The position numbers were made by a program, and so were the translations under genes. The notes beneath the pieces are model-generated. The model was not told where the DNA came from. It saw only the letters and a list, made by a program, of their open reading frames with translations, and did not search any database. Positions 1,148 through 44,818 of a stretch of DNA of 44,818 bases are shown here, one piece after another (the stretch's first letter is position 1; every line of letters begins with the position of its first letter). Source of the DNA: a virus; IMG/VR virus record IMGVR_UViG_3300045988_101875, positions 1-44,818 of that record; one strand, given 5' to 3'.

Positions 1148-1378
1148 ATGCAGATAGATGAGAAACTGCTAGATAAGCTTGCTATAGGTGAAGTCAATGC
1201 CCTTTTAGAAGGACTTGATGACCCTGAGCTGCGTCGCAACCCTGCTTTTCTTGCTAAGGTGCGTGAGTTCTTGAAGCAGAATAAATTACAGACCACCCCT
1301 GAAACCCAAGGGGTACAAAAGATTCAGAAGGTAGTAGAAGAAATTCCTACCTTTGATTTTGATGGGCAGGTGAGCTGA
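1148..1378 (+). CDS. Small terminase subunit (T7 gp18-like DNA maturase A).
   Basis: 76 aa, immediately upstream of and overlapping the large terminase. Helical pattern LEGLDDPELRRNPAFLAKVREFLKQNKLQ resembles T7 gp18 ADLSDHERRSPQLYNAINKLLDRHKFQ. Confidence 0.55.
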   Translation: MQIDEKLLDKLAIGEVNALLEGLDDPELRRNPAFLAKVREFLKQNKLQTTPETQGVQKIQKVVEEIPTFDFDGQVS

Positions 1379-3117
1379 TGTCTGAATGGACAGATGAACA
1401 GGTTGCCAAAGCCAAGGAGGACTTCAGGGTCTTCCTTTTTATCTTATGGAAAATGATTGGTCTTCCACCCCCTACACCTATCCAATATGCAATGGCGCAT
1501 TACTTGCAGTATCCCCCTAGTGACCGCATTATTCTTGAAGCGTTCCGTGGTGCTGCAAAGAGCTTTATTACCTGCGCCTTTGCCGGGTGGAGCTTATGGA
1601 ATAACCCTCAGATTAAAGTAGAGATTGTGTCTGCTTCAAAGGAACGTGCGGATGCCAACGCTGTCTTCATTAAGCGTATCCTTAATGTTCTGCCCTTTTT
1701 AGAGCATTTAAGACCTGATACAACCAAAGGCAACAGAGACACCATGAACCTGTTTGATGTTGCCCCTGCTGTGCCTGACATCTCCCCTTCTGTAAAGTCT
1801 GTAGGTATCTATGGTCAGATTACAGGCTCTCGTGCTGACCTGCTGATTGCTGATGATATTGAGATACCCTCAAACTCTGCAACGCAAATACAGAGAGATA
1901 AGCTAAGTGAAGCAGTTAAGGAATTTGATTCCATCCTTAAACCTAATGGACAGATTGTCTATTTAGGTACACCTCAATGTGAGATGTCTCTTTATAATGA
2001 GTTGCAAAATCGTGGCTACTCCTGCACCATTATCCCTGTTATCTACCCTGAGGATAAAAAGGCTCGTGATAATTATGGTAGCAGGTTGCATACCTTCATT
2101 GCTGATGCACTTGATAAAGACCCCACGTTAGCAGGTAAACCTACTGACCCTCTACGCTTCAATGATGAAGAAATTTTCAAACGTAGACTGTCCTATGGTA
2201 AAGCTGGCTTCGCCTTGCAGTTCCTGCTTGACACAAACCTCTCTGATGCTGAAAAGTATCCGCTCAAAGTGGCTGACTTTATTGTGGCTGACCTTGATAT
2301 GGATGAAGCATCTATGAAGTGGGCATGGGCAAGTGGGTATGAACAACGCCTAAAGGATGTACCCTGTACTGCCCTTAAAGGTGACTTCTTCTATGCCCCT
2401 TTTGACAGGTCTAAAGAAACTGCTAAATATACAGGTACTGTAATGGCTATTGACCCCTCAGGACGTGGTGCGGATGAACTTGCCTATGCTGTTATCAAGA
2501 TTCTCAATGGTTACCTGTTCCTCATGGAAGTTGGTGGCTATCGTGATGGTTATGGTGATGATACCCTCAACATCTTAGCTAATAAGTGTAAATTTTGGGG
2601 CGTGAATGATGTTGTCTCTGAAGCCAACTTCGGTGATGGTATGTGGGGGCAGCTCTTTAAACCTGTGCTGAATAAAGTACACCCTTGCACTTACACAGAA
2701 GTCAAGAACAACAAACAGAAAGAAGCTCGTATCATTGATACGCTTGAACCTGTTATGATGCGTCACAAGCTTATTGTCAACACCTCTGTTATCTATGATG
2801 ATTATAAGGTGTATGAGAATGACCAAAAGTATTCTTTAATCTATCAGCTCACAAGACTGACTAGAGATAAGGGTGCGCTTGCTCACGATGATAGACTTGA
2901 TGCTGTGACTATGGCTGTTGCCTTTTGGCTAGAGAGCTTAGACAGGGATGCTCAACAAGGTATTGATGAACTTGAAGAAGAACAGCTTATGAAATGGTGG
3001 GATTCTGACTTTGGTATTCTACATAAAGAATATAATCCTGAGCTTGTTCCGGAACGCTATAGAAAAAGACAACCACAATTTGGAGGAGCTACTGTGGTTG
3101 ATAACTTTTATAGCTAA
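1378..3117 (+). CDS. Terminase large subunit (T7 gp19-like).
   Basis: 579 aa. AFRGAAKSFITCAFAGWSLWNNPQIKVEIVSASKERADANAVFIKRI and C-terminal ALAHDDRLDA are near-identical in pattern to T7 gp19. Confidence 0.9.
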   Translation: MSEWTDEQVAKAKEDFRVFLFILWKMIGLPPPTPIQYAMAHYLQYPPSDRIILEAFRGAAKSFITCAFAGWSLWNNPQIKVEIVSASKERADANAVFIKRILNVLPFLEHLRPDTTKGNRDTMNLFDVAPAVPDISPSVKSVGIYGQITGSRADLLIADDIEIPSNSATQIQRDKLSEAVKEFDSILKPNGQIVYLGTPQCEMSLYNELQNRGYSCTIIPVIYPEDKKARDNYGSRLHTFIADALDKDPTLAGKPTDPLRFNDEEIFKRRLSYGKAGFALQFLLDTNLSDAEKYPLKVADFIVADLDMDEASMKWAWASGYEQRLKDVPCTALKGDFFYAPFDRSKETAKYTGTVMAIDPSGRGADELAYAVIKILNGYLFLMEVGGYRDGYGDDTLNILANKCKFWGVNDVVSEANFGDGMWGQLFKPVLNKVHPCTYTEVKNNKQKEARIIDTLEPVMMRHKLIVNTSVIYDDYKVYENDQKYSLIYQLTRLTRDKGALAHDDRLDAVTMAVAFWLESLDRDAQQGIDELEEEQLMKWWDSDFGILHKEYNPELVPERYRKRQPQFGGATVVDNFYS

Positions 3118-4550: not shown

Positions 4551-5696
4551 CTAAGCTTCTATCACAGCAACGTGTTTTTCCGAACATTCCTGCAAGATGT
4601 GTCCGTAGATAGCATAGGTAACCGCTATGCTGGTGTGTCCTAAGCGTTCTGTTATAAGAGCTATGGGTACATGCTTGTAAATCATGTTGGATGCGTTTGT
4701 GTGTCTCAGTCCATGGAACGTGAAAGGTCTAGTGATACCTGCGCCTTTCCTAGTGAAATCCCATGCATGGATAAGCAACCGCTCCACATAGAAGCTATCT
4801 CTTTTCCTATTATAGAAGATATATGGTGACTTGTCAAAGCTAAGTGGCTTTAAAGACATAAGAAGCTGTGTTGTCTTCTCAGATATTTTAATCGTGCGAT
4901 ACCCGGCTTGTGTCTTAGGGTATGTAACTATTGTCTTGTTATTCTTATCCTTAGCTAAGGTTCTTTTTACAGATATTGTATTAGCAGCATCATCAAGACA
5001 ATCCCACGTAAGAGCTAACAGCTCCCCTTCTCTCATGCCTGTTTCATAGGCAAGACAATACAGAGCATAGAACTGATACTTCAGCATAGGTTTCTCCTTG
5101 TGCTCCCATAGTGGCAGGAGGAACGCTTTGATTCGCTCGTGCTCCTCTTGCGATAAGACAACCACTTCATGTTTAGGTTTGTCACTTTTTGGTGTCTTCT
5201 GCATCGAAGTTACAGGTGACTTTCCAATAAGGTCTTGTTCTACACACCATTTGAAAAAGAGCCGTAAGCGACCTAGGTAATTGAGATAGGTATTAGTTGA
5301 ATAGTTCTTTTGTTGCCACTCTAAGAGCATGGTATCTATAGTATGAGTGGTAACCTTAGATAACGCTAAGCCATTAGCTGTGTTGTCTAGGAACTTTAGG
5401 ACACGTCTTGTGGTCAATATTACTGACCCTGACATCCGCTGAGCTTCTAGGTGCTTAAGGTACACCTCACCCTGATACTTTATTGTGTCTTCTTCTGCTT
5501 TTACTTGCAGACCTTTATCCTCTTTGTCTCTCTGAAGCTTCTTCAGCTTCTCCACAGCTTCCTTTTTTGTGTCTGCTGTGGCTGATAGCCATCGCCTTTT
5601 GCCATCCACAGGGTCTAATTCAACCCTGACACGTACTTTACCACTAGGGAGGACTATTATAGACCCCTCTCCTTTAGGTCTTCTACGAGATGGCAT
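4551..5696 (-). CDS. int: Tyrosine integrase (site-specific recombinase).
   Basis: C-terminal HGLRHTNAS...LGHTSIAVTYAIYGHI catalytic motifs. Probable start is ATG at 5696 with SD aggagg (reverse complement of 5704-5709); the ORF-track TTG at 5717 is less likely. Confidence 0.85.
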   Translation of the reverse strand: MPSRRRPKGEGSIIVLPSGKVRVRVELDPVDGKRRWLSATADTKKEAVEKLKKLQRDKEDKGLQVKAEEDTIKYQGEVYLKHLEAQRMSGSVILTTRRVLKFLDNTANGLALSKVTTHTIDTMLLEWQQKNYSTNTYLNYLGRLRLFFKWCVEQDLIGKSPVTSMQKTPKSDKPKHEVVVLSQEEHERIKAFLLPLWEHKEKPMLKYQFYALYCLAYETGMREGELLALTWDCLDDAANTISVKRTLAKDKNNKTIVTYPKTQAGYRTIKISEKTTQLLMSLKPLSFDKSPYIFYNRKRDSFYVERLLIHAWDFTRKGAGITRPFTFHGLRHTNASNMIYKHVPIALITERLGHTSIAVTYAIYGHILQECSEKHVAVIEA

Positions 5697-6209
5697 TATA
5701 AAACCTCCTGACTTCAAAAATTGCCAAAAATTGTGAAAGGGTATATATAATATAGAGATTGGCTGGTTTCCCCCCGTGCCCGGGGTCTTTGGGTCTCCTG
5801 TCGAAAATAGTGTACACTACATCTGAATAGCATATGCTATATCGGTGTTCCCAAGGGTACAAGTTACGTCCGATAATATATCTTATGTTAAATTTACCTT
5901 GTTTGTGGCAAGAGATAACCAAGCAAGCTATATGTTAGTACCTGCTTTTTATGGGGATATTGCGAACATATGTACATTATTACGAACACTTATATGTTTT
6001 ACTTTAGTATGGTAAAGTGTTAAAGTATCCAAAAATATGGCGTATAATGTATCTGTATTATATGCCCTAGGTATCTACTGTATCTACCATATCCACTATA
6101 TCCATTATATCCCTGAGCTGCCGTTGGTTGCTACTAGCTACATTACTATAGATACTATTGTTACCATTAATTACTATTGCTACAGACATTATACAGTCAC
6201 CAGCTACTA

Positions 6210-10131: not shown

Positions 10132-10159
10132 CAATGGGTACACGTAAATGAAAGAAGAC
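10132..10159 (+). promoter_or_regulatory. Conserved 28-bp element, copy 1 (caATGGGTACACGTAAAtgaaagaagac); candidate phage-RNAP promoter or regulatory site.
   Basis: Near-identical copies at 12782-12809 and 12965-12993. Confidence 0.45.
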
Positions 10160-10184: not shown

Positions 10185-12785
10185 ATGACAAATGAAGAAC
10201 TGATGCAAGAAGAATTGAACTTAGAATCATCTTACAGACAAGATGGTTACGAAGCAGCTTTATCTGCTCTCTATGAAGCCAAAGAAAAAGAGATGGTTGA
10301 TACTGCTTTGCCTATCGGACAAGCGTTCTTCAGACACAAAGCAATGGTTGTCAAGAAAACTATGGAAGAATGGCTCATTAAAAACATGAAGCCTAAAGCT
10401 GGTGTCAAGCAGAACTTTATCTTCCTGCTGGATGATTTGAAACGTGAATTTGTTACTGCTGATGGTGATGTGGATATTGATACTATTGCCAATATCTGCT
10501 CCTCTGTCACCCTCTCCTGCCTTATCAATGCCTTAACAACCAACAGCAGTAAAGGTATGGCGTTCTTTAATGATATAGGAGCACGTATCGGTGTTAACCT
10601 GATGTTTGAGTATCAGACACAATGCTTTGATAATTGGCTGAAGACCTTACCTAAAGAAGACAAAAACAGAAAAGCACTTGCAGGTATCGACAAGCGCATC
10701 GGTATGCATTATCGCTATGTATACATGAAGAAGGCTGTTAAAAACTGTGGTTACAACATGCCTACATGGGAACAAGGTGACAATGAAGCACTTATCAACT
10801 TAGGGTGTGCTCTGCTGACATTGACAGAAGACACAACAGGATATTGGTATCGTGATTCTGACATGCACACACCTACATACCTTGTCCCCACCCCTGAATT
10901 TATTGAAGCATGGGAACGAAACGAAGACAACATGCTTGCACTTGCCCACAAGAGCTGTCCTATGGTTGTTCCACCAAAAGAGTGGGTATCTTATGATGAG
11001 GGCGGTTACTATGGAGACCTTGCAGCTTTTTCAACATTCCTGCGCTTAAAATATGGACACAACGCTTTCAGAAAAACCTATGAAGCACGTCTGCATCAAT
11101 TAGATACCCCTGATGTTTATAAGGCAGTGAACAGTATCCAAGCAACAGCATGGTGCATCAACAAAGAGGTGTTGTCTATCATCAAACAATGCCGTACCTT
11201 AGGCTATATCCCCTACGGCAAGCAGAAAGACACACACATTATGAGCTTAGATTTGGATGATGGAAAACCTGCTGATTTGCCTGAACACCCTACGGATGAG
11301 ATGGTTAAGGAATACAAGAAAAATAAAGCTCAATGGTGGAAAGGGCAAAAAAGAAGAATATCTATTATCAATCGCTCTAATACCATGATAAACATAGCGG
11401 ATAAGTTCAGTGTCTATGAGAATATCTATTTTCCTTGGAATATGGATTTTAGAGGACGTATCTATCCTATTCCATCTTTCAGTCCCCAAGGTGATGATAT
11501 TTGCAAAGGCTTGTTGCTCTTTTCTGCTACCCCTCCTTGTCAAGACCCTAAAGATATTGAATGGCTTGCCATTACCGGAGCTAACCTTGCAGGTGAAGAC
11601 AAAATCAGCTATGCTGACCGCATCCAATGGGTTTATGCCAATGAAGAAGTTATTCTTGATGTAGCAAAAGACCCTATGGGTAACTTATGGTGGTTACATA
11701 AAGACAAAAAGCCTGTACAACTGCTGGCATGGTGTCTTGAATGGGCAAAAGCTAAGCAGTGGATAGCTGCCCATGGCTCTATTGTTGGTTGGGTAACAGG
11801 TCTCCCCTATGCTCAGGACGGCACATGCTCAGGTCTGCAACATTTCAGTGCTATTCTGCGTGACCCCATCGGTGGTGCTGCGGTGAACCTTGTACCCCAA
11901 GACAAACCGAATGACATCTATCGCTTGGTAGCTGACAAGGTAAATGTTGTCTTGAAGCAGGATGCTATGTCAGGCACTATTGACGAATGGGACGAAGAAA
12001 AGCTGAAGACCAAGTTCGGTACAAAAACTATGGCGCAGATATGGTTAAATTATGGTGTTAACCGCACTGTAACCAAAAGACCTACTATGACCCTTGCCTA
12101 TGGTGCTAAAAAGCGTGGCTACACTGAACAGATTATGGAAGATACAATCAGACCAGCTCTGAACGCTAAGACTACCTGTGGTTTTACAGAGACTAATGCC
12201 TATCAATGTGCTATGTATATGGCTGAGCTGATATGGAACTCTGTAGGTGCTACTGTTGTACGTGCTGTTGAGGGCATGGATTGGTTACATAAAGTTTCCA
12301 AACTTGTCACCAAAAATGCAAATGTAGTGTCTTGGTGCACACCTTTAGGTCTCTTGTTGCAACAAAATTATTTAAAGTATGAATCTAAGGTGATTAAGTT
12401 ACGTTGTGCCGGAAAGCGATTCAGAGTGTATGTCCCCCACCAAACAGGTGTGATTGATAAGACAAAACAGGCTAATGGTATTGCTCCGAACTTTATTCAC
12501 TCCATGGATGCCTGTCACCTTCAAATGACAGTATGCAGAGCTAAGGATGCTGGTATCAATCACTTTACCATGGTGCATGATTCTTATGGTTGCCCTATGT
12601 CTCAGGCTAAACTGATGTATGAGATTGTACGTAAAGCCTTTGTAGATATGTATACAGAGCATGATGTCTTGGATGAGTTTAGACAATATCTGCAACCTTT
12701 GGTGAATAAAGAACTCCCTGCTCCCCCTAAAAAAGGTGATTTAGACCTCAACATTGTATTGGACAGTAAGTACATCTTCTGCTAA
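10185..12785 (+). CDS. T7-like single-subunit DNA-directed RNA polymerase.
   Basis: 866 aa. Palm motifs ...PNFIHSMDACHLQ... and MVHDSYGC. Overall architecture and position as in T7 gene 1. Confidence 0.92.
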   Translation: MTNEELMQEELNLESSYRQDGYEAALSALYEAKEKEMVDTALPIGQAFFRHKAMVVKKTMEEWLIKNMKPKAGVKQNFIFLLDDLKREFVTADGDVDIDTIANICSSVTLSCLINALTTNSSKGMAFFNDIGARIGVNLMFEYQTQCFDNWLKTLPKEDKNRKALAGIDKRIGMHYRYVYMKKAVKNCGYNMPTWEQGDNEALINLGCALLTLTEDTTGYWYRDSDMHTPTYLVPTPEFIEAWERNEDNMLALAHKSCPMVVPPKEWVSYDEGGYYGDLAAFSTFLRLKYGHNAFRKTYEARLHQLDTPDVYKAVNSIQATAWCINKEVLSIIKQCRTLGYIPYGKQKDTHIMSLDLDDGKPADLPEHPTDEMVKEYKKNKAQWWKGQKRRISIINRSNTMINIADKFSVYENIYFPWNMDFRGRIYPIPSFSPQGDDICKGLLLFSATPPCQDPKDIEWLAITGANLAGEDKISYADRIQWVYANEEVILDVAKDPMGNLWWLHKDKKPVQLLAWCLEWAKAKQWIAAHGSIVGWVTGLPYAQDGTCSGLQHFSAILRDPIGGAAVNLVPQDKPNDIYRLVADKVNVVLKQDAMSGTIDEWDEEKLKTKFGTKTMAQIWLNYGVNRTVTKRPTMTLAYGAKKRGYTEQIMEDTIRPALNAKTTCGFTETNAYQCAMYMAELIWNSVGATVVRAVEGMDWLHKVSKLVTKNANVVSWCTPLGLLLQQNYLKYESKVIKLRCAGKRFRVYVPHQTGVIDKTKQANGIAPNFIHSMDACHLQMTVCRAKDAGINHFTMVHDSYGCPMSQAKLMYEIVRKAFVDMYTEHDVLDEFRQYLQPLVNKELPAPPKKGDLDLNIVLDSKYIFC

Positions 12786-12809
12786 TGGGTACACGTAAAC
12801 GAAGAAAGA
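12782..12809 (+). promoter_or_regulatory. Conserved 28-bp element, copy 2; overlaps the RNAP stop codon.
   Basis: taATGGGTACACGTAAAcgaagaaagac. Confidence 0.45.
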
Positions 12810-12964: not shown

Positions 12965-12993
12965 TAATGGGTACACGTAAACGAAGAAAAGAC
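12965..12993 (+). promoter_or_regulatory. Conserved 28-bp element, copy 3.
   Basis: taATGGGTACACGTAAAcgaagaaaagac. Confidence 0.45.
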
Positions 12994-13527: not shown

Positions 13528-14025
13528 TTGGTAAACATTAAATTCAAAAAACTTGACCCTAAAGCCACTCTCCCCCAAGCAATGACAGGTGGAGCTGCTG
13601 GTCTTGATTTGGTTTGTCTTAACCGCATGGCGGTGACACCGAACCGCTGGTCTTCAAAGGCAGCTATCATTCACACAGGCTTGGCTATGGAATTACCTGA
13701 AGGCTATTATGCTGAGGTTGTCTTGCGCTCCTCTACAGGCAGAGACACAAAACTCAGACTTGCTAATCAGGTTGGTATTATTGATTCTGATTATCGTGGT
13801 GAAATCATGTTGTATGTGGAGAATTTAGGTGACCATCTCGAAATTATTAATGCTGGTCAACGAATTGCGCAACTGTTGATTCACAAGATTGAAGAAGTGG
13901 TGATTGAAGAAGCCACTGATGAGCTGTCTAAGACTGAAAGAGGTCTTGAAAGTGGCAGTACAGGTAAAGGAACTAAACCTGCTGTGAAGACAAGAAGAAC
14001 CAAGGAGGGAGCTAAGGATGCCTAA
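13528..14025 (+). CDS. dut: dUTP diphosphatase.
   Basis: GAAGLDL, IIDSDYRGEI and RIAQL motifs. TTG start with SD aaaggagga. Confidence 0.85.
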   Translation: MVNIKFKKLDPKATLPQAMTGGAAGLDLVCLNRMAVTPNRWSSKAAIIHTGLAMELPEGYYAEVVLRSSTGRDTKLRLANQVGIIDSDYRGEIMLYVENLGDHLEIINAGQRIAQLLIHKIEEVVIEEATDELSKTERGLESGSTGKGTKPAVKTRRTKEGAKDA

Positions 14026-14434
14026 ATTTAAAGTTGGTGACAGAGTTATGGTACATCCATACAGCTATAGAGGGGAAATTACAGGTACTATCATTAGAGC
14101 TGTTGGGCGTTATCCTCTTTATGATGTGACATTAGATAAACCTTTTTTAGAAGGCATGAAAAACTATCTTGCTGCTGAAGGTGAGATTACCCCTGTTAAG
14201 GATGAGAAGGCTAAGATTGTCTTCTATGCAGAACCTAAAGAACGTACTGTTCATTGTAAGTTTTTTGGTTCTATGGGCATGGTGGCTCATACCAAGTCTG
14301 TATGCAGTCCTGATGATGATTTTGATTTTCTGACAGGTGTTCAGATTGCCCTGCAACGTATGCTGAAGTTGCAACACAAAAAGATGGTACTTCCATCATT
14401 TAATGATATTGAATTTATTGATTTTAAAAAATAA
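14018..14434 (+). CDS. Hypothetical protein.
   Basis: 138-aa ORF in the operon. Confidence 0.5.
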   Translation: MPKFKVGDRVMVHPYSYRGEITGTIIRAVGRYPLYDVTLDKPFLEGMKNYLAAEGEITPVKDEKAKIVFYAEPKERTVHCKFFGSMGMVAHTKSVCSPDDDFDFLTGVQIALQRMLKLQHKKMVLPSFNDIEFIDFKK

Positions 14435-14449
14435 AGGAGAATAACAAAT

Positions 14450-15037
14450 ATGGCAAAGAATGATTTTGCACAAATTACAACCCCTGCTGGTGAGGCGGTG
14501 TACCCTAAGCTCCGCAGCACCGAAGTATTTGATGGAGAGGATACCGGAAAGTATGTCTGCGGTATCAAATTGTCTAAAGAAGACACTGATAAGCTGATTC
14601 AACGTATCGAAAATGAATGGGAGATGGCTAAGAAGTCCCCCGACTTTGATGGCAAACGCTATGGTCGCAACTCTGCCCCTGCCCTTGGTTTCCATGAAGA
14701 CAAAGATGGTGATATTGTCTTTAAGGCTAAGACCAACGCTGTTATCAAGACCAAAGCTGGTGATGTTATCGAAAAGACTATGGCGGTCTTTGATAAGAAG
14801 GGTAAACCTATGGACGAAGAGATGGAAGTTGGCAACGGCTCTACCATTCGTCTGTGTATGCTTCTGCGTCCGTTCTACGCTTCTGCTACTGTCTATGGCA
14901 TCCAACTGCTCCTGAAGGCTGTTCAGGTTCTGAATTATGTAGCTCCTGCTGCTGGTTCTGTATCTGCTGATGATTGTGGCTTTGAGGTTGTCGCAGAGGA
15001 AGAATTTGACGAAAACAACCCGCCGTTTGACTTTTAA
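14450..15037 (+). CDS. Single-stranded DNA-binding protein (T7 gp2.5-like).
   Basis: Acidic C-terminal tail EEEFDENNPPFDF ending in Phe, as in gp2.5. Position as in T7. Confidence 0.75.
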   Translation: MAKNDFAQITTPAGEAVYPKLRSTEVFDGEDTGKYVCGIKLSKEDTDKLIQRIENEWEMAKKSPDFDGKRYGRNSAPALGFHEDKDGDIVFKAKTNAVIKTKAGDVIEKTMAVFDKKGKPMDEEMEVGNGSTIRLCMLLRPFYASATVYGIQLLLKAVQVLNYVAPAAGSVSADDCGFEVVAEEEFDENNPPFDF

Positions 15038-15039
15038 TC

Positions 15040-15507
15040 ATGGCTATCAAATTTAATCGCAGAGGTGGCTTTGCTACCCTCAACAAACCCTATCGCAGCG
15101 GTTTAGAAGACCGCCTAGCACAGCAACTTGAAAACGCAGGAGTGCCTAAGGTGTACGAAAAATACTCTATCGCCTATGAGATTCCTGCTACAAAGCATCA
15201 TTATACCCCTGACTTCATTCTGCCTAATGGCATCATCATTGAAGCCAAGGGTATCTTTGAAGCTGCTGACCGCAAGAAACATCTGCTTATCAGACAACAA
15301 TATCCTAATTTAGACATACGCTTTGTATTCTCCAACGCTAAGACAAGAATTGGTACAGGAGCTAAGACTACTGTGGCTGAATGGTGTGAGAAGCATGGTT
15401 TCCAATATGCCAGCAGAGAGATTCCCTCTCGTTGGTTCAAAGAGACCATGAAGGACACCAATGGTCTTGTCCTGCGTGGAAAAGGTGAGCGTATTGTCAC
15501 TCTTTAA
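15040..15507 (+). CDS. Endonuclease I (T7 gp3-like Holliday-junction resolvase).
   Basis: ...YTPDFILPNGIIIEAKG... catalytic core pattern. 155 aa. Confidence 0.8.
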   Translation: MAIKFNRRGGFATLNKPYRSGLEDRLAQQLENAGVPKVYEKYSIAYEIPATKHHYTPDFILPNGIIIEAKGIFEAADRKKHLLIRQQYPNLDIRFVFSNAKTRIGTGAKTTVAEWCEKHGFQYASREIPSRWFKETMKDTNGLVLRGKGERIVTL

Positions 15508-15835
15508 ATTCAAAGAGCGCACTGAGACCACACAGATATGTGTTGTCTTAAGAAACCTAAAGGGTAAGTGCAAACGTGAGCTGTTTAGGGAAGCTTACAG
15601 ACAAGGTGAAGTTGACACAGGCTTCCACTTTATTGTCTTCAACAATGGTCTTTTTGAGACCGACAGAGAAATAAAGGCAGTTGCCGGATATAATCTGCCT
15701 GAATGTGAGACTTCTGTGTATGTCTTAGCTGATACGCTAGGACGAAAGAAAATATCCGATGCTCAGCAGTATGTACTGAATGAGCTGAAGGCACAGTTTA
15801 ATGTGCCTATAAAATTTATTACTGACGAGGTGTAA
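15494..15835 (+). CDS. T7 lysozyme (gp3.5)-like protein lacking the zinc-binding catalytic residues; probably only the RNAP-regulatory function remains.
   Basis: LSLFKFKERTETTQICVVLRN aligns with T7 MARVQFKQRESTDAIFVHCSAT, and GFHFIVFNNG with GYHFIIKRDG. There is no His at the zinc site and the C-terminal His/Cys region is absent. Start is TTG at 15494 (SD aaaggtgag); ATG at 15461 is an alternative. Confidence 0.6.
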   Translation: MSLFKFKERTETTQICVVLRNLKGKCKRELFREAYRQGEVDTGFHFIVFNNGLFETDREIKAVAGYNLPECETSVYVLADTLGRKKISDAQQYVLNELKAQFNVPIKFITDEV

Positions 15836-15838
15836 CTT

Positions 15839-17452
15839 ATGGAGACACATCAACCCTGCCCTGCTTGTGGCAGCCATGATGCCCTAACCATCTATGAAGA
15901 TGGGCACAGCTATTGTTTCTCATGTAACACCTACTTTCGCAGTGACAAGGAGGAGAAAAAATTGTCAAGTGGTTTAAAGAAACAAGGTCTGATAGACCTA
16001 CAGGACATGGTGGTCTCCCCCTTGCCTAAGCGGAAACTGACAAAACAGACCTGTGCTAAATATGGCTACTTTACCTCTATGGCACATGGTCAGCCTGTGC
16101 AGGTTGCTTGTTACTATGACGATGATAATAAGCTCTTAGGGCAAAAAATCAGATATGCTGATAAGACCTTTGAAGCTAGAGGTTCTTTTAGTGAGCGGTT
16201 CTTTGGACAACATCTGTTCCAAGGTGGTGGCAAGAAGCTGGTAGTGACCGAGGGTGAGATTGATTGTCTTACAGTCTCGCAGGTACAGGGTAATAAATAT
16301 CCTGTTGTGAGTATTCCTACAGGTGCTGCTAGTGCTGCTAAAGTCTTCAGAGCTAACTTTAATTGGCTAGAGAGCTTTGAGGAAGTCATTGTCATGTTTG
16401 ATATGGATGATGCAGGAAGAAAAGCTGTGAAGGCTGTTAGCGGTATCTTGTCCCCTAACAAACTTAAGATAGCATGGCTACCTTGTAAAGACCCTAATGA
16501 GTGTTTACAGGAAGGCAAGGCTGATGCTGTTGTCAAAGCTGTTTGGGAAGCTAAGACATACACCCCTGCTGACATCATCAAAGGTGATGAACTGTGGGAG
16601 GTATTGTCTAAGCATGAAGAATCCCTGAACTACCCCTTGCCTTGGGACATCCCACTGCAAAACATGACTGATGGGTTACGAAAAGGTGAGCTGGTAGTTA
16701 TCACAGCAGGTACAGGTATAGGTAAAACTACGTTCGTTAGACAACTAGCCTATCATCTTGGTACTGAGTGCTATTGTAAAGTAGGGATGCTGATGTTGGA
16801 AGAAAACGTCAAGCACACCGCCAATGGTCTTGTGTGTCTGAAGCTTGGCAAACCTGCCCATAGACCTATCATTGACAGTGAGTACAAAAAAGCCTTTGAA
16901 GACATCATGGATAATTTTGTCTTCTACAATCACTTCGGCTCTCTCGAATGTGAAGACCTCTTGCAGACCATCCGTTACATGGTGACAGGTGAGCAGGTGG
17001 ATTTTGTTGTCTTAGACCACATCTCCATTGCTATCAGCGGTCTTGACATTGAAAATGAGCGTAAGGCTACTGATGTCCTTATGACGAAACTTCGTTCGCT
17101 TGTAGAAGAAACAGGTGTAGGAATGTTGGTTGTCTCTCACCTACGTAGAACTGACGGCACTCCTGCTGAAGAAGGTGGTGCTCTCTCCCTTTCACATCTG
17201 CGTGGTTCACAGGCTATCTCACAACTCTCTGATGCTGTGTGGGGTCTTGAAAGAAACCAGCAGGATGAGGGAATGAAGAAGAACCTTGTGCGTGTCAGGG
17301 TACTGAAGAACAGATATAGCGGTGATACAGGTATCGCCGGATACCTTGCATATGACAAGGAACATAATATCTTAAAAGCTGTAAAGGACTTATCAGAATA
17401 TAATGCACCTGAGTGTCCTTTTGATACTGAAGAAGAGAAAGGAGATTTTTAG
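15839..17452 (+). CDS. DNA primase/helicase (T7 gp4-like).
   Basis: N-terminal CPACGSHDALTIYEDGHSYCFSC zinc ribbon, TOPRIM segment, Walker A GTGIGKTT and DnaB-family motifs. Confidence 0.9.
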   Translation: METHQPCPACGSHDALTIYEDGHSYCFSCNTYFRSDKEEKKLSSGLKKQGLIDLQDMVVSPLPKRKLTKQTCAKYGYFTSMAHGQPVQVACYYDDDNKLLGQKIRYADKTFEARGSFSERFFGQHLFQGGGKKLVVTEGEIDCLTVSQVQGNKYPVVSIPTGAASAAKVFRANFNWLESFEEVIVMFDMDDAGRKAVKAVSGILSPNKLKIAWLPCKDPNECLQEGKADAVVKAVWEAKTYTPADIIKGDELWEVLSKHEESLNYPLPWDIPLQNMTDGLRKGELVVITAGTGIGKTTFVRQLAYHLGTECYCKVGMLMLEENVKHTANGLVCLKLGKPAHRPIIDSEYKKAFEDIMDNFVFYNHFGSLECEDLLQTIRYMVTGEQVDFVVLDHISIAISGLDIENERKATDVLMTKLRSLVEETGVGMLVVSHLRRTDGTPAEEGGALSLSHLRGSQAISQLSDAVWGLERNQQDEGMKKNLVRVRVLKNRYSGDTGIAGYLAYDKEHNILKAVKDLSEYNAPECPFDTEEEKGDF

Positions 17453-17686
17453 ATGTTTGAAATCTTAGAAAAGCTTATTGATTGGTGTACTTCCCTGCTG
17501 TCTTGGTTGTCGCGTAAGCAGGTCGAAGCTGCTAAGGCTCGTATCAAGAACTGCAATAGCATGATTCATAATGCTAACAAGGCTAAGATTGCATACTTGC
17601 AGAAGCATGAGAAGACAATCAATGCTCTTGAAAACGAGCGTGAGCGCATGGAATACTTCTTGTCGCAAGATGCTGTGGAGCTGTAA
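17453..17686 (+). CDS. Hypothetical protein (77 aa, coiled-coil).
   Basis: ORF contiguous with neighbours. Confidence 0.45.
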   Translation: MFEILEKLIDWCTSLLSWLSRKQVEAAKARIKNCNSMIHNANKAKIAYLQKHEKTINALENERERMEYFLSQDAVEL

Positions 17687-17688
17687 TT

Positions 17689-18130
17689 ATGTTGGATACA
17701 AAACAATGTAATACATGTGGTAGAATCCTGCCTTTATCCTCTTTTTATCTAAGAGGTAAGGGGGGATAGAGCAGCAGGAACACCACGTCATCAATGTAAA
17801 GAATGTCGAGCAAAGATAGCATCTGCATATTATCAAAAACATAAAGAAGCACACAATAAAGTTGCAAATAGGTATCACCGCTTGAAATTTGCAGGTTTTT
17901 CAGAAGACCATTACAATCAAAAATTTCAAGAACAAAAAGGGTGTTGTGCTATTTGTGGTAAGGCAGTTTCAGAAGTAAAGCGTAAAGTACTCTGTGCAGA
18001 CCATAATCATGCCACAGGTAAGCCTAGAGGTTTATTATGTCCTATATGTAATTTAATGCTTGGCTATGCTTATGATGATATTGCTGTTTTAGAAAAAGCA
18101 ATACAGTATTTAAAGAAATATGAGGAATAA
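17689..18130 (+). pseudogene. Endo VII-type HNH endonuclease interrupted by a +1 frameshift at a G6 run (17760-17765). The N-terminal CxxC...CxxC zinc-ribbon part is in frame 1 (17689-17769); the HNH core is in frame 2 (17753-18130).
   Basis: Removing one G fuses MLDTKQCNTCGRILPLSSFYLRGKG to DRAAGTPRHQCKECRAK...KGCCAICGK...DHNHATGKPRGLLCPICNLMLG. Paralogous to the intron-encoded ORF at 19490-20068. Confidence 0.55.
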
Positions 18131-18132
18131 TT

Positions 18133-19463
18133 ATGCTTTACTTTGATATAGAAACAGATGGTCTTTTAGATACCCTCACCAAAGGGCACTGCATGGTTAT
18201 TATTGATGAACAAAATAATATATCAGCGTATCGTCCTGATACTTTCAAAAAAGGAGCTATGAGATTAATTTCTGCTCTAAAAGATGGCGAAAGTATTGTA
18301 GGGCATAATATTATTTCCTTCGACTTAGAAGCTCTTGCTAAGCTCTATCCTGAGTTCCGCATAAAGCGAGAATGGAGACCACAAGTCTTAGATACTCTTG
18401 TACTTGCACGTCTTATCTGTGGCAACATAGAAGATACTGACCACGCTAGAGTACGTAATGGTACACTCCCTGCTAAGCTGCTTGGTAGGCAGTCTCTAAA
18501 GGCGTGGGGGTATCGCCTTGGGGAGCTTAAAGGTACGTATGGTGAACAAGAAGATGCATGGGATTCCTTTAGTGAAGAGATGCTCTCCTATTGTGTGCAG
18601 GATGTCACTGTCACAAAGAAGCTCTATACATACCTTATGAAGATTGGAGCACCTGCTAAGGCTATAGAGCTGGAGCATCAGGCACAATGGCTGATGTCTA
18701 AGCAGGAGCGAAATGGTTTTGTCTTTGATTTAGAAAAGGCAGAGAAGCTGAGGGAAACCTTAGAGCTACGCTATGCTGTGTTGTCTTCTCAGCTCGTGGC
18801 GATTGTGCCACAGATACCTGATAAGGTCTTCGTACCTAAGAGAGACAACAAACGCTTAGGTTATAAGAAGGGTGTCCCTATCCAAAGATATAAGGATTTT
18901 AATCCTAGTAGCAGACAGCAGGTGGCATGGGTGCTGGAACATCAATTTAATTATCTGCCGGAAAACGAAGACTGCTATGAGGATGAAAGACTGAAGATTG
19001 ATGGTGATACCTTTAAGTTTATTAAGGGTGACGAAAACGCACCACAGGAGCTAAGAGATTTAGCTGCTGTCTTTGAGGAATACCTTATGGTAGCTAAGCG
19101 TCTTGGACAGTTAGCCACAGGTAACCAAGCATGGCTGAAGCATGTTAAGGCTGATGGTAGAATCCATGGCAGCGTAAACCCTTGTGGTACTGTAACAGGA
19201 CGTGCTACCCATGCGAACCCTAATGTTGCCCAAGTACCCCACGTTGGCAGTCCCTACGGACAAGAGTGCAGGGAATTGTTTAGAGCACCTGAGGGTTGGT
19301 TTGAGGTGGGTGTAGATGCCTGTGGCTTGGAGCTTAGGTGTCTAGCACATTATCTTTATCCCTATGATAAAGGTGCTTATGCCCATGTTATCTTGAATGG
19401 TGATATCCACACATTGAATCAACAGGCTGCTGGGTTACCTACAAGAAACCAAGCGAAGACCTT
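18133..19463 (+). CDS. DNA polymerase (T7 gp5-like, family A), exon 1 (3'-5' exonuclease and N-terminal polymerase part).
   Basis: MLYFDIETDGL Exo I motif. ...GDIHTLNQQAAGLPTRNQAKTF aligns with T7 ...GDIHTKNQIAAELPTRDNAKTF. Confidence 0.9.
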
Positions 19464-20149
19464 TGACTAAATAGAGGTCTATAAACCCATTGAAAACGGT
19501 GAAACTCTCACTGAGACAATACCGTGCGAAGCTAAAAAGGAGAAGAATGACTAGAGAAGATTATCTACAAAAGATGCTACAAATTGTGGCAGGAAATAAA
19601 CCTAAGAAATTACAGACAGCAAAACCAAGTAAGTACCCACAAGGCTATTTCAAAGCAAAGAAATGTAAGCATTGTGGGTCTATTTTTATTCCTAAAGCTC
19701 CTTCTGAGCATTACTGCTGTGACTTCTGTAAAGATTATGGTGTCACCAATGCTTACTATAAAAGAGTGTATGGTCTTACCCTTGATGATGTATTAGATAT
19801 GGCAGAAAATCAAAATTTTGTCTGTGCTATTTGTCATGGTGATAACTTTGCTATGAATGATTGCCACTCAGGGGTGCTTGTTGTTGACCATGACCACGAG
19901 ACAGGTAAAGTGCGTGGGTTGGTCTGTCATAACTGTAATCGTGCCTTAGGTTTGCTACATGATGATGTTGATAATTTCCGTAGAGCTATTTCCTATTTAG
20001 AACGTGTAACGACTATTCCGGAAGGAAGTACAGTACAAGCTGATGGTGCTGGAAGCGGTGGGCATTGATGATATAGTCTGCTCTCATAGGTGACTATGAG
20101 CTGTCCTTATGGACGCATAGGGTGTTGCGAACCCTATGGAACATTTTGG
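19464..20149 (+). mobile_element. Approx. 686-bp intervening sequence in the DNA polymerase gene, carrying an HNH endonuclease ORF; most likely a group I intron.
   Basis: Joining 19463 to 20150 restores KTF|IYAFLYGSGD (T7: KTFIYGFLYGAGDE). The upstream exon ends in T, the insertion ends in G, and the insertion carries in-frame stops. Confidence 0.7.
19490..20068 (+). CDS. Intron-encoded HNH (Endo VII-type) homing endonuclease.
   Basis: CKHCG...CCDFC zinc ribbon and VVDHDHETGKVRGLVCHNCNRALG HNH core. The true start may be ATG at 19547 (SD aaaaggag). Confidence 0.75.
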   Translation: MKTVKLSLRQYRAKLKRRRMTREDYLQKMLQIVAGNKPKKLQTAKPSKYPQGYFKAKKCKHCGSIFIPKAPSEHYCCDFCKDYGVTNAYYKRVYGLTLDDVLDMAENQNFVCAICHGDNFAMNDCHSGVLVVDHDHETGKVRGLVCHNCNRALGLLHDDVDNFRRAISYLERVTTIPEGSTVQADGAGSGGH

Positions 20150-20675
20150 TATTTATGCATTTCTCTATGGTAGTGGAGACAAAAATCTTGGCAAGCTTCT
20201 TGGTGGTGATGAAGCTATGGGCAAGAAAGCAAAGAATAAGTTTCTGAAGGCTACCCCTGCTATCAAGATGCTGCGTGAAGCTGTCAAGAATACACTTGTG
20301 GTTGAGTACCACGGCAAAATTAAAGAATGGAAACGAAAATATTTAAGAGGGTTGGATGGCAGACATCTCCATGTGAGAAGTCTACATTCAGCTCTCAATT
20401 TGCTTTTACAGTCCTGTGGTGCATTGATATGTAAAAAATGGACTGTAACTTGGGAAGAAAATATGGTGAAGGCTGGCTATGACCATGGCAAAGACTTCTT
20501 TTGGATGGCAAATATTCATGATGAATCCCAAATAGCCTGCCGTACTAAAGAGATAGCTGAAGATGCTAGCCGAATTGCCCAAGAATCTATGAGACAAACA
20601 CAAGAATATTATGGAATCAGATGCCAATTAGATACCGAGGGAAAGATTGGTCAAAATTGGTATGATTGTCATTGA
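20150..20675 (+). CDS. DNA polymerase exon 2 (motifs B and C, C-terminus).
   Basis: IYAFLYGSGDKNLGKLL...VHDESQIACR...LDTEGKIGQNWYDCH aligns with the T7 gp5 C-terminus (...LDTEGKMGPNWAICH). Confidence 0.88.
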
Positions 20676-20684
20676 GGTGTAAGA

Positions 20685-21071
20685 ATGTTTAACATCCCTA
20701 CTCTACTCTTAGTCATATGCACCGCCTATACCCCTGCCTTTGACGAATGTGGCAAGAACGATGGCATCACAGCAAGCGGACACCCTGCAATCATGGGGCA
20801 AACAGTAGCCTGTGATGGACTACCTCTAGGAACTGAGGTGGTTATTGATGGACACAGCTATATCGTTCAGGACAGGTTCGGCGGTGATTATGGTAAGACA
20901 AAAATTGATATTTTTATGAACACTAAAGCAGAAGCCTTTAGGTTCGGAAGACAAACAAAAATTGTGGAGGTAAAGCCTTATGTCGAAACAAAAGCAACCT
21001 TTTGTGCCAAAGATTGGTCAGAAGGTCTATATAAAACGTCAGAACTCCTTAGGAGAGACCGTTTATTTTGA
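20685..21071 (+). CDS. 3D-domain (MltA/YuiC-like) peptidoglycan-lytic lipoprotein or secreted protein.
   Basis: Signal-like N-terminus, then GITASGHPAIMGQTVACDGLPLGTEVVIDGHSYIVQDRFGGDYGKTKIDIF (3D-domain pattern). Confidence 0.6.
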   Translation: MFNIPTLLLVICTAYTPAFDECGKNDGITASGHPAIMGQTVACDGLPLGTEVVIDGHSYIVQDRFGGDYGKTKIDIFMNTKAEAFRFGRQTKIVEVKPYVETKATFCAKDWSEGLYKTSELLRRDRLF

Positions 21072-37917: not shown

Positions 37918-38472
37918 ATGGAATTAAGTGCTGATATTCAACGTGAAATACAGCAACAGTTTAAAAATAGCTATGCCCAACTTTTAGCGGACATAACTCG
38001 TATCTATGAGCAGGGTGCTATGCGTGATGCCCTCACAGGACTGTACAATAAGCAAGCCTTTGAGCGTGACAGTACCACTAATCACTTTGGTTTCGTTGGT
38101 ATCCTTTTCGCAGACATCAATGGTCTGAAATATACCAATGACCACTTTGGACACAGTGCAGGGGATAAACTGATAAAGGACTTTGCAGCTAAGCTTAAGG
38201 AAACCTTTATCTCCCCTATTTATAACTGTTATCATATATCAGGTGATGAGTTTATAGTAGCTGGGTTTGATATTAAAATCCACGAGTTTCTTGGAAGTGT
38301 GTTGTCTTTCCATAAGTCCCTATGGGATAAAGACAACCCTCCCCTAGCTGCTTTAGGCTACTCTGCTGGTGTCTTCTCAGATATTGCAGAGATTACAGAG
38401 TGCGCAGAAAAAGCAATGTATGAAGACAAACAAAAATTTTATGATAATTTTCCTCAGATGAGGAGACAATAA
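37918..38472 (+). CDS. Stand-alone GGDEF-domain protein (diguanylate-cyclase-like). The catalytic motif reads SGDEF, and it has no sensor domain and no I-site.
   Basis: RDALTGLYNKQAF, DINGLKYTNDHFGHSAGD and HISGDEFIV align to the PleD/WspR GGDEF domain. SD aaaggag 10 nt upstream. Confidence 0.75.
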   Translation: MELSADIQREIQQQFKNSYAQLLADITRIYEQGAMRDALTGLYNKQAFERDSTTNHFGFVGILFADINGLKYTNDHFGHSAGDKLIKDFAAKLKETFISPIYNCYHISGDEFIVAGFDIKIHEFLGSVLSFHKSLWDKDNPPLAALGYSAGVFSDIAEITECAEKAMYEDKQKFYDNFPQMRRQ

Positions 38473-42340: not shown

Positions 42341-42355
42341 ATTATGGAGGATATT

Positions 42356-42526
42356 ATGGACAATGAAATTGTAAAGACAACCCCTCCTATTGGTGTCTCC
42401 ACCCTATCCCTCATGGGCATCCCTCTGTCCGATTGGGTGTATATTGTCACCATTATGTATGTCTTGATTCAGATTTGGGTCTTGTTGTATAAGACCTTTT
42501 TTAAAAAGGAGGAATGTAATAAGTGA
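42356..42526 (+). CDS. Holin-like small membrane protein.
   Basis: TM segments. Immediately upstream of and overlapping the endolysin. SD ggagga. Confidence 0.45.
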   Translation: MDNEIVKTTPPIGVSTLSLMGIPLSDWVYIVTIMYVLIQIWVLLYKTFFKKEECNK

Positions 42527-42879
42527 AATTATCTGCTCATTTTGATTCTAGTGAATTTGCCTGTAAATGTGGCTGTGGTGGTCTCCACAATGGTGCTGAC
42601 ATCAATCCACGGCTTGTACAGGTATTAGAGCGTATGCGTGCTATCATTGGCAAGCCTTTGGTGCTGTCCTGTGGTTACCGCTGTCCTGCCCACAATGCTG
42701 AGGTAGGTGGCGTGTCTAACAGCCAGCATATCTATGGTACTGCTGCGGATGTGCAATGCCCTGATGGTGTTATGTTGCAGACTTTGTATGATGCTGCAGT
42801 AACTGCAGGTGCTGATGGTATTGGTATCTATAGCTGGGGTGTCCATGTGGATGTCCGTGGCTATCCTGCACGTTGGTAA
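42523..42879 (+). CDS. Endolysin, peptidase M15 (YcbK/DUF882-like zinc D,D- or L,D-peptidase).
   Basis: FDSSEFACKCGCGG...PLVLSCGYRCPAHNAEVGGVSNSQHIYGTAADV motif. GTG start with SD aaaggagg. Confidence 0.75.
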   Translation: MKLSAHFDSSEFACKCGCGGLHNGADINPRLVQVLERMRAIIGKPLVLSCGYRCPAHNAEVGGVSNSQHIYGTAADVQCPDGVMLQTLYDAAVTAGADGIGIYSWGVHVDVRGYPARW

Positions 42880-42935: not shown

Positions 42936-44818
42936 TTGAAAATTAAGAAACGTGATGGGTCTCTCGTAGACTTTAATAAAGACAAAATTATTAATGCTAT
43001 CTCTAAGGCTGGCTTTGTAGCTTCAAAGACAAAAAATGCTATTGCTGATGTTGTTGAAAAGATGGCAAAAAAAGAAACACTAACTGTGGAAAAGATACAA
43101 GATATTGTGGAAACTGAGCTTATGCTGAACTATTACCCTGAGGTAGCTAGAGAATATGTTCGCTATCGCTATAAACGTGAGCTTATCCGTAATACCAAAG
43201 GTGCTTTGAGTGAAGTGCTTGAAATTGTCAACCTCAGCAACCAAGATGTGAATGAGGAGAACTCTAATAAGAACCCTGTTATTTTGTCGACCCAACGTGA
43301 CTATATGGCAGGTATGGTCTCTAAAGAGCTTTCTGAAAAGCTGTTGTTCCCTCCGGATGTAATGAAGGCACATAAAGCAGGTATCATCCATGTGCATGAT
43401 ATGGACTATGCTATCCAAAAGATGTACAACTGTGCTCTGTTAGACATGGAAGACATGCTCCAAAATGGCACTGTAATCAATGGTACGATGATTGAAAAGC
43501 CACATAGCTTTGCTACTGCTTGCAATATTGCTACTCAGATTATGGCACAGGTCGCTTCTAACCAATATGGTGGGCAAAGTGTGTCGGTAGCACATTTAGC
43601 TCCTTTTGTCAATACCTCTAGACAAAAAATTAAAGAAGAAGTTAAGCAGGAACTAGAAGATATTCAGGCAGAGTATTGTGAGACAGACTTAGACTATATC
43701 ACAGAAAAGCGATTGAAAGCTGAAATCACTAAGGGTGTACAGACAATGCAATATCAGATTAATACCCTTATGACATCCAATGGTCAGACACCCTTTGTTA
43801 CCTTATTCTTATATCTTAATGAAGCTAAGAACGAGCAGGAGAAGAAAGACCTTGCTATGGTGATTGAGGAAATCATCCGTCAACGCTATCAGGGTGTCAA
43901 GAATGAAAAGGGTGCATGGATTGCTGCTGCGTTTCCTAAGCTGATTTATGTCTTAGAGGAAGACAACATCCGTAAGGGTACACCCTATTATTACCTCACA
44001 GAGATGTGTGCTAAATGTACTGCTAAGCGTATGCAGCCTGATTATTTGTCTGAGAAGATTATGCTGAAGAACAAGAAGACTGAAGATGGTGTGGGTCACT
44101 GCTATCCACCTATGGGATGCAGAAGCTTCTTGACACCCTATCTTGATGAGAATGGTAAAGCTAAATTCTATGGTCGCTTCAACCAAGGTGTTGTCTCCAT
44201 CAACCTTGTGGATGTGGCGTTGTCCGCTGGTAAAGACAAAAATAAATTTTGGTCTATTCTTGATGAGCGTTTGGAGTTGTGCCATAAAGCCTTACGTGTA
44301 AGACACCAAAACCTTAAAGGTACAATCTCTAATGTCTCCCCTATCCATTGGCAATATGGTGCTATTGCTCGTCTGCAAAAAGGTGAGAAGATTGACAAGC
44401 TGTTGGAAAATGGCTACTCCACTATCTCCCTTGGCTATGCAGGTCTCTATGAGTGTTGTATGGCAATGTTCGGTAAATCTCATACTGACCCTACTGTGAA
44501 ACCCTTTGCTCTCTCTGTCATGCAACATCTTAATGACAAATGTGCTGAATGGAAAGCTAAGGAACATTTAGGCTATAGTGTCTATGGTACTCCTATGGAG
44601 ACCACCACATATAAGTTTGCGAAGTGTCTTCGTGACCGCTTTGGGGTAATCAAGGAAGTCACTGACCATGATTACATTACCAATAGCTATCATGTGAATG
44701 TCCGTGAACCTATTGACCCCTTCACCAAACTGCAATTTGAATCTGAGTTTCAACTGCTCAGTCCGGGCGGTGCTATTAGCTACATTGAGTGTGCTGATAT
44801 GACCAAGAATATTGATGC
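42936..44818 (+). CDS. nrdD: Anaerobic ribonucleoside-triphosphate reductase NrdD, N-terminal and main part; continues at 1..254.
   Basis: TTG start with SD aaaggagg. N-terminal ATP-cone KIKKRDGSLVDFNKDKIINAI. Frame open to the window end. Total length 693 aa including the wrap. Confidence 0.85.
   Translation, partial: MKIKKRDGSLVDFNKDKIINAISKAGFVASKTKNAIADVVEKMAKKETLTVEKIQDIVETELMLNYYPEVAREYVRYRYKRELIRNTKGALSEVLEIVNLSNQDVNEENSNKNPVILSTQRDYMAGMVSKELSEKLLFPPDVMKAHKAGIIHVHDMDYAIQKMYNCALLDMEDMLQNGTVINGTMIEKPHSFATACNIATQIMAQVASNQYGGQSVSVAHLAPFVNTSRQKIKEEVKQELEDIQAEYCETDLDYITEKRLKAEITKGVQTMQYQINTLMTSNGQTPFVTLFLYLNEAKNEQEKKDLAMVIEEIIRQRYQGVKNEKGAWIAAAFPKLIYVLEEDNIRKGTPYYYLTEMCAKCTAKRMQPDYLSEKIMLKNKKTEDGVGHCYPPMGCRSFLTPYLDENGKAKFYGRFNQGVVSINLVDVALSAGKDKNKFWSILDERLELCHKALRVRHQNLKGTISNVSPIHWQYGAIARLQKGEKIDKLLENGYSTISLGYAGLYECCMAMFGKSHTDPTVKPFALSVMQHLNDKCAEWKAKEHLGYSVYGTPMETTTYKFAKCLRDRFGVIKEVTDHDYITNSYHVNVREPIDPFTKLQFESEFQLLSPGGAISYIECADMTKNID

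Follow-up and report, generated by a model that had tools for sequence, protein, structure and literature searches.

The lysozyme of bacteriophage T7, the product of gene 3.5 (gp3.5), is a textbook bifunctional phage protein that acts as a cell-wall amidase and as an inhibitor of T7 RNA polymerase (RNAP), and the pLysS/pLysE control of pET expression systems relies on it. As established for T7 lysozyme (Cheng et al. 1994), its zinc ligands are His17, His122, and Cys130 and its catalytic residues are Tyr46 and Lys128 (T7 lysozyme residues are numbered without the initiator Met, and the positions were checked on the sequence); the same authors reportedly found that zinc is required for amidase activity and not for RNAP inhibition. 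That a T7 lysozyme homologue serves as an RNAP regulator is known already, and the separation of its functions has been engineered. Here we describe a natural gp3.5 homologue that, by its alignment with T7 lysozyme, lacks all of these residues. It is encoded at positions 15494 to 15835 of IMG/VR record IMGVR_UViG_3300045988_101875, a T7-like phage sequence that was analysed over its full 44,818 nucleotides and is called the window below.

Besides T7 lysozyme itself and the short phage "lysozymes" treated below, two described systems come close. The first is the T7 mutant AFK136 (Zhang and Studier 2004, as recounted in PMC2680503), in which codons 130-135 are deleted, lysis is lost, and RNAP binding is kept, the phage itself lysing late with gp16 compensating. 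AFK136 appears to be the engineered counterpart of a short natural family; in both, a C-terminal lesion takes away the zinc and catalytic region. AFK136, however, is a laboratory mutant that has lost six codons and is full-length apart from these, whereas the loss in the family of the window protein is larger, ancient, and paired with a dedicated endolysin. The second comprises the animal peptidoglycan recognition proteins (PGRPs) PGRP-SA, PGRP-LC, and PGRP-LF, in which the Amidase_2/PGRP fold has become a non-enzymatic binder through zinc ligand loss. These are extracellular receptors that keep the full-length domain and the peptidoglycan groove and have usually lost only the Cys ligand, whereas the window protein misses the whole C-terminal part of the groove and belongs to the context of cytoplasmic phage gene regulation. 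A literature search turned up no account of gp3.5 proteins that are truncated in nature and zinc-less, and a natural, widespread, and conserved amidase-less form of gp3.5 appears to have gone unrecognised.

Homology to T7 lysozyme

Sequence, fold, and gene position support the identification of the 113-aa window protein as a true gp3.5 homologue. In a pairwise BLASTP comparison, it matched T7 lysozyme at E 6e-9 with 31% identity across 74 aa, and both motif pairs that had been quoted in an earlier reading of the sequence (the original prediction) align there as described. Searched alone against the PDB, the protein had two T7 lysozyme chains as its sole matches (E 0.012), and tblastn of T7 lysozyme against the whole window gave a single credible match, at 15494-15694 (E 1e-5), the runner-up having E 0.41. 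When 10 close homologues were combined in a profile, the match to T7 lysozyme reached E 1.7e-5, with Met1 on Met1. For the wider family, 1.84 billion representatives were searched with a hidden Markov model (HMM), and a 99-sequence alignment (A2) was built from the matches. The profile of these 99 sequences reached E 6.3e-20 against 1ARO_L (T7 lysozyme in the structure with T7 RNAP) and 2e-17 against 1LBA, compared with 1e-9 to 1e-3 against other Amidase_2 endolysins and PGRPs. The crystallised 1LBA protein lacks the residues ARVQF, which is consistent with the 146-aa chain starting with KQR in the profile match. With the family alignment, hhalign placed window protein residues 1-106 on T7 residues 1-120 (99.1% probability, E 4e-19). 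These scores are far from random, and the alignment, which the original prediction had confined to the N-terminal 60 residues, is both real and larger in extent.

The structure prediction leads to the same fold. An AlphaFold2 model based on the 99-sequence alignment has a predicted local distance difference test (pLDDT) score of 84.9 and a predicted template-modelling (pTM) score of 0.74, and was used instead of a run with the 10-sequence alignment only (pLDDT 47.6). The order of its elements (strand, helix, strands, strand, helix, strand) is that of the Amidase_2 core. The best solved matches found with Foldseek were 1ARO_L (E 1.6e-7, template-modelling (TM) score 0.74) and 1LBA, followed by amidase endolysins and PGRPs, with PGRP-SA, PGRP-LC, and PGRP-LF among them. 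Domain databases register little of this relationship: the protein alone had no match to Pfam Amidase_2 (PF01510) even at E<=1 and reached PHROG 822 "amidase" only at E 0.006, which explains why the nine closest homologue clusters are all unnamed and without a precomputed Pfam domain. PF01510 matched 29 of the 99 family members at E<0.01.

The gene lies between the genes for endonuclease I (T7 gene 3 homologue; 15040..15507, plus strand; Pfam Phage_endo_I, E 1.5e-57) and the primase-helicase (T7 gene 4 homologue; 15839..17452, plus strand; Pfam Helic-prim_T7_N, Toprim_2, and DnaB_C). Because it stands between these two in a T7-like order, it occupies the position of T7 gene 3.5, in a T7-type genome that likewise has its own RNAP. 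The N-terminal arm (KFKxRxxT) and the GYHF motif are common to both proteins. The window protein differs from its T7 counterpart in its length (113 aa versus 151 aa), in the missing C-terminal helix and zinc and catalytic residues, and in that lysis in the window is assigned to an M15 peptidase.

Loss of the zinc site and catalytic residues

The position of His17 is taken by Val18 in the window protein, confirming the substitution that had been proposed for the zinc site, and that of Tyr46 by Phe44. Strand 5 (PIKFI) is aligned with T7 GLRAH, and seven residues follow the aligned part before the chain stops. The His122 position and what comes after it contain no His, the chain ending at about that position, and the positions of Lys128 and Cys130 lie beyond the end, which falls 4 residues before the Cys130 position. 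The original prediction was thus right that the protein stops before the second His/Cys ligands and that catalytic residues are lost, although it left the Tyr46 to Phe change unmentioned. The whole protein contains a single His (H45, the equivalent of T7 His47), so that a His/His/Cys zinc site is impossible. By this alignment the protein lacks all three zinc ligands and both catalytic residues, and it would have no peptidoglycan amidase activity.

A split gene, with the catalytic C-terminus encoded elsewhere in the window, was considered and rejected. Searches with tblastn using T7 lysozyme and its last 46 residues found nothing better than E 0.38 in the window, and the start of the primase gene follows the stop codon by 4 nt; the absence of a C-terminal fragment and this tight junction together speak against a split.

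The 99 family members have a similar pattern. The His17 position holds Val in 46 of them (His in 10, Thr in 7, Leu in 6, and Asp in 5), and the Tyr46 position holds Tyr in 49 and Phe in 37. None has the C-terminal ligands in the form of an H...K.C tail, and the tail past strand 5 has a median of 6 residues, versus 31 in T7.

Breadth, age, and conservation of the family

The family HMM matched at least 106 clusters (50% identity) at E<=1e-3, nearly all of 100-125 aa (median 114 aa), and the truncated architecture is common to them. The gene itself occurs on about 38 IMG/VR contigs, most of which carry it at 94-98% identity to the window version. Between the window and its relatives, the Nei-Gojobori ratio of nonsynonymous to synonymous substitution (dN/dS) is 0.16-0.22 at dS 0.8-1.7. 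These results support a loss of residues that is ancient and maintained under purifying selection.

Conservation is concentrated in the region matching T7 residues 2-52 and in the N-terminal arm, which together form the best conserved part of the family. The arm (positions 4-12, KFKxRxxT) is the most conserved segment, with 2.28 bits per position compared with 1.57 for positions 50-106. The arms of the window protein and T7 lysozyme align without gaps, Met1 on Met1, and among the Amidase_2 structures in the PDB only T7 lysozyme aligned to the arm. Three residues conserved family-wide, D89, Q91, and Y102, fall outside the 2-52 region.

Gene order is preserved across the family. In five close relatives (L001-L005), the gene always lies between endonuclease I and the primase-helicase, with a T7-type RNAP present. 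Contexts could also be read for six more distant and diverse members, one of them in an integrated prophage; P0064, P0019, P0100, P0030, and P0085 (24-40% identity) are among them. At their loci, which include L048, L049, L051, L052, and L053, the gene stands beside endonuclease I and/or just upstream of the primase-helicase; where a contig includes both flanks, the gene follows the former and precedes the latter, and shorter contigs show one neighbour. An RNAP was found wherever the contig was long enough, which applies to all five close relatives and, among the distant members, to two contigs (L048 and L053).

Searching deposited phages by tblastn with three family members returned only full-length gp3.5 amidases, at 25-38% identity. 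As a separate observation, gp17 of Pelagibacter phage HTVC105P, named a lysozyme (L006 3001-3435), is 144 aa long and not of the short form. Aligned quickly with MAFFT, it retains the first zinc His and a C-terminal Cys but lacks a His where T7 has His122; it may be a further gp3.5 that is partly degenerate.

A candidate regulator of the phage RNAP

We favour, with moderate confidence, the reading that the window protein is a pseudo-enzyme gp3.5 that retains only the RNAP-regulatory role. It draws on four lines of evidence: the conserved arm and 2-52 region, the co-occurrence of a T7-type RNAP, the precedent of AFK136, and the presence of a separate holin and M15 endolysin cassette. Residues 2-52 of T7 lysozyme are described as the RNAP-interaction domain (PMC5445346), and an R3S change weakens inhibition (PMC10138996). 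The presumed binding partner in the window is a T7-type single-subunit RNAP of 866 aa (10185..12785, plus strand; Pfam RNA_pol, E 1.4e-98), which matches T7 RNAP at E 2.4e-124 in an alignment that reaches the C-terminal foot.

The protein keeps three parts of the T7 lysozyme fold (the N-terminal arm, helix 1, and the central sheet); the zinc site (His17, His122, and Cys130), both catalytic residues (Tyr46 and Lys128), and 30 residues at the C-terminus are gone. Its weak TTG start lies in the DNA-metabolism block, where the gene overlaps the last part of that for endonuclease I. In the proposed mechanism, the protein would bind the phage's own T7-type RNAP, as T7 lysozyme does, and damp or tune transcription and the RNAP-dependent steps of replication and packaging, while the breakdown of the wall at lysis would fall to the holin and M15 endolysin.

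Several observations at the level of residues weigh against this reading. Only 2 of the 17 lysozyme contacts listed for T7 RNAP (PMC5445346) are identical in the window RNAP (R307 and L853), and about 4 more are conservative, by a hand count that draws on interface data from secondary sources. T7 RNAP residues 708-719, next to the fingers contact, are deleted in the window RNAP. On the side of the lysozyme, Arg3 of T7 corresponds to Leu in the window protein, and family members differ in how long the arm is ahead of KFK. Divergent RNAP contacts are to be expected of a co-evolving interface and are compatible with it; they give no positive support for binding.

The poor conservation of these contacts would also fit a function unrelated to RNAP, in which the truncated PGRP-like domain has a different partner or ligand, such as muropeptides, a host amidase or wall-recycling enzyme, a further replication protein, or a factor of host defence, and its likeness to gp3.5 is merely ancestral. 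Animal PGRPs, found among the fold matches, use the same fold as a non-catalytic binder, and the conserved D89, Q91, and Y102 lie outside the region that corresponds to the RNAP-interaction domain. This alternative nevertheless strikes us as unlikely, if one to be taken seriously. The gene keeps its position and its constant association with a T7-type RNAP, and the strongest conservation falls in an arm that, among solved Amidase_2 structures, is specific to T7 lysozyme. Moreover, the loss of 30 residues at the C-terminus leaves the peptidoglycan groove incomplete, and the protein has no signal peptide and is encoded among replication genes.

Lysis genes and the question of residual hydrolase activity

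The genes of T7 for holin and lysozyme are far apart. In the window, a T7-family holin (gp17.5-like, 60 aa; 42344..42526, plus strand) was recognised by Pfam Phage_holin_2_2 (PF10746; E 2e-7, 31.0 bits versus a cut-off of 25.4) and by a hydrophobic segment in its translation. It overlaps by 4 nt the start of an M15 peptidase endolysin (42523..42879, plus strand; Pfam Peptidase_M15_3, E 8.7e-21; PHROG 894 endolysin, E 2.7e-35), and the two form a compact holin-endolysin cassette. Judged by these domain matches, the M15 endolysin most likely replaces the amidase function of gp3.5. The original prediction had delegated lysis to separate M15 and 3D-domain hydrolases. The cassette bears out the first part, whereas the case for the second is weak: the small 3D-domain protein, encoded in the replication module (20685..21071, plus strand), matches Pfam 3D at E 7.3e-5 with 23.3 bits, just under the gathering cut-off of 23.8, and has PHROG matches to peptidase families. 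It is a possible second wall-active protein of uncertain role.

With a complete lysis cassette in the window, and with the three zinc ligands and both catalytic residues absent and a single His in the protein, it is improbable that the window protein is still a cell-wall hydrolase or lysis accessory that uses residues other than the His/His/Cys site. What speaks for such an activity comes from names, from domain matches, and from one experimental study. In a Foldseek search of viral models, two short proteins named "Lysozyme" matched the model: A0A8S5T7U2 (113 aa, TM 0.84) from an uncultured phage and A0A8A6C5V8 (104 aa) from Aeromonas phage PZL-Ah152, and the PF01510 matches in 29 of the 99 family members point in the same direction. 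A 2025 paper treats ORF17 (Lys17) of PZL-Ah152 as an endolysin and reports that it kills after permeabilisation of the outer membrane (PMC12817945). That killing depended on ethylenediaminetetraacetic acid (EDTA) or citrate and was followed by colony counts, not by an amidase assay, and Lys17 alone or mixed with holin had no effect (PMC12817945). We regard it as weak evidence for muralytic activity, yet it is the one published claim that runs contrary to a purely regulatory role.

Lys17 and A0A8S5T7U2 resemble the window protein as short gp3.5 homologues that stand beside endonuclease I, have the first zinc His replaced, and lack the C-terminal ligands; they differ in being annotated as lysozyme or endolysin and not as RNAP regulators. 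In PZL-Ah152 (MW671054; L046 4775-5423), a Studiervirinae phage, ORF17 has Ser at the His17 position and diverges past about residue 75, where there is a proline run. Because of this divergence its truncation looks independent. The next gene, ORF16, is annotated as hypothetical, directly follows ORF17, and encodes M15-type motifs, which make it the more likely endolysin of PZL-Ah152. A decaying, functionless remnant of gene 3.5, for which the shortened length, the missing catalytic residues, and the weak TTG start might be cited, has next to no probability, since the start codon and its ribosome-binding site are conserved, the fold is confidently predicted, and a pseudogene is ruled out by the low dN/dS held across lineages at saturating synonymous divergence together with the same architecture in all those clusters.

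Translation start and overlap with neighbouring genes

An open reading frame (ORF) is present at 15494-15835 on the plus strand, where the original prediction had placed the gene; it runs from a TTG start to a TAA stop, and its assignment draws on the ORF list, the conserved start, the homology to T7 lysozyme, the model, and the dN/dS. A Shine-Dalgarno (SD) sequence, AAAGGTGA (15481..15488, plus strand), lies 5-6 nt before the TTG, within the 3' end of the endonuclease I gene. The start codon at the position equivalent to 15494 is TTG in every lineage examined and is preceded by a purine-rich GGTG-type SD. In relatives at 66-74% identity (L001, L004, and L040-L042), the TTG and SD recur, with GGAGGTG or AGGTGGTG as the equivalent SD motif.

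An in-frame ATG at 15461 offers an optional 5' extension (15461..15493, plus strand, from the ORF list) that would add 11 residues and give 124 aa. This ATG is restricted to the window's own sublineage and is absent in P0002-P0009, L001, L004, and L040-L042, relatives that are 66-80% identical. Since relatives without the upstream ATG start at the TTG-equivalent codon, 15494-15835 is the conserved gene (113 aa), and the ATG is probably not its main start.

The TTG lies 14 nt inside the endonuclease I gene, an overlap that suggests low-level, coupled translation. At the other end, the gene closes with GAG GTG TAA, codons that hardly vary, and the two sense codons among them also serve as the ribosome-binding site (GAGGTG) of the primase gene. 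Here GAGGTGTAA is invariant across the relatives, with GATGTGTAA in L001.

Genome context and lifestyle

The first 55 bases of the window are repeated exactly at 44764-44818. Such a terminal overlap marks the assembly of a complete genome that is circular or terminally redundant, here of about 44,763 bp (41.3% G+C). Megablast of positions 14000-18000 against deposited phages gave no match, and no deposited RNAP exceeds about 38% identity to that of the window; the phage is without a close cultured relative.

Apart from the genes described above, the genome is arranged as follows. An HNH_3 endonuclease ORF (504-860) lies just upstream of the gene for the terminase large subunit (1378-3117), and a tyrosine integrase gene is on the minus strand (4551-5717). 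A dUTPase gene is found between those for the RNAP and a gp2.5-like single-stranded DNA-binding protein (14450-15037). After the primase-helicase come, in order, DNA polymerase, ThyX, exonuclease, portal, capsid, and tail and internal virion proteins.

The sequence AATGGGTACACGTAAA occurs in three exact copies (10133-10148, 12784-12799, and 12966-12981) that flank the RNAP gene and lie inside repeats of 28-39 nt. Three copies were reached in none of 100 shuffles. These repeats may be promoters or regulatory sites.

Two genes of the group are interrupted. The DNA polymerase gene of the window consists of two ORFs with an Endonuclease_7 ORF (HNH-type, homing endonuclease-like) between them (18133-19470, 19490-20068, and 20136-20675), and is a single ORF of 618 aa in L001 and L004. 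In L005 (298-3758), the RNAP gene is split into parts of 549 aa and 278 aa by a 202-aa ORF without a Pfam domain, which may be a further mobile insertion. A protein with a GGDEF (diguanylate cyclase) domain (37918-38472; Pfam E 2e-14) is encoded between the genes for a gp16-like internal virion protein and the tail fibre, and is unusual cargo for a T7-like structural module.

Since it has a tyrosine integrase in a T7-like genome, the window phage is probably temperate; an integrase is also present in three of the close relatives (L001-L003). One distant family member, P0085, is encoded in a T7-like prophage (L053) within a 3.53-Mb chromosome labelled uncultured Anaeromusa sp. Its genes include those for helix-turn-helix (HTH) repressors, an integrase, RNAP, endonuclease I, the short gp3.5, primase, polymerase, ligase, and portal. 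The prophage, with its HTH repressors and integrase (L053 1-5300), adjoins a gene for a P-type ATPase. A copy of the window gene at 95% identity was found on a 114-kb contig (L045) of a Phascolarctobacterium metagenome-assembled genome. Given this copy and the Anaeromusa prophage, the hosts are probably Negativicutes.

Implications for gene 3.5 and phage RNAPs

Phage lysozymes are of limited use as RNAP repressors because their amidase activity is toxic (PMC10138996). If the short gp3.5 proteins are RNAP regulators, they would offer inhibitors that are non-toxic and already matched to orthogonal phage RNAPs. Evolution would then have repeatedly separated the enzyme from the RNAP-binding function, with the regulatory role retained across distant T7-like phages. 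At present the short proteins go by the names "lysozyme" or "endolysin", and development into an antibacterial lysin has been undertaken for at least one (PMC12817945); the evidence from sequence argues against such naming.

A non-lytic brake on RNAP would be particularly sensible for a prophage, although this is speculation. A broader proposal, which we put forward tentatively and hold to be doubtful, is that the zinc-less short gp3.5 proteins represent an old, large, and hitherto unrecognised class whose dedicated role is to govern phage single-subunit RNAPs non-enzymatically; in temperate T7-like phages they would restrain leaky RNAP during lysogeny or early induction without a toxic wall enzyme. 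The window phage with its integrase and the Anaeromusa prophage would be examples. If this proposal is true, the control of RNAP, and not lysis, would be the conserved core function of gene 3.5.

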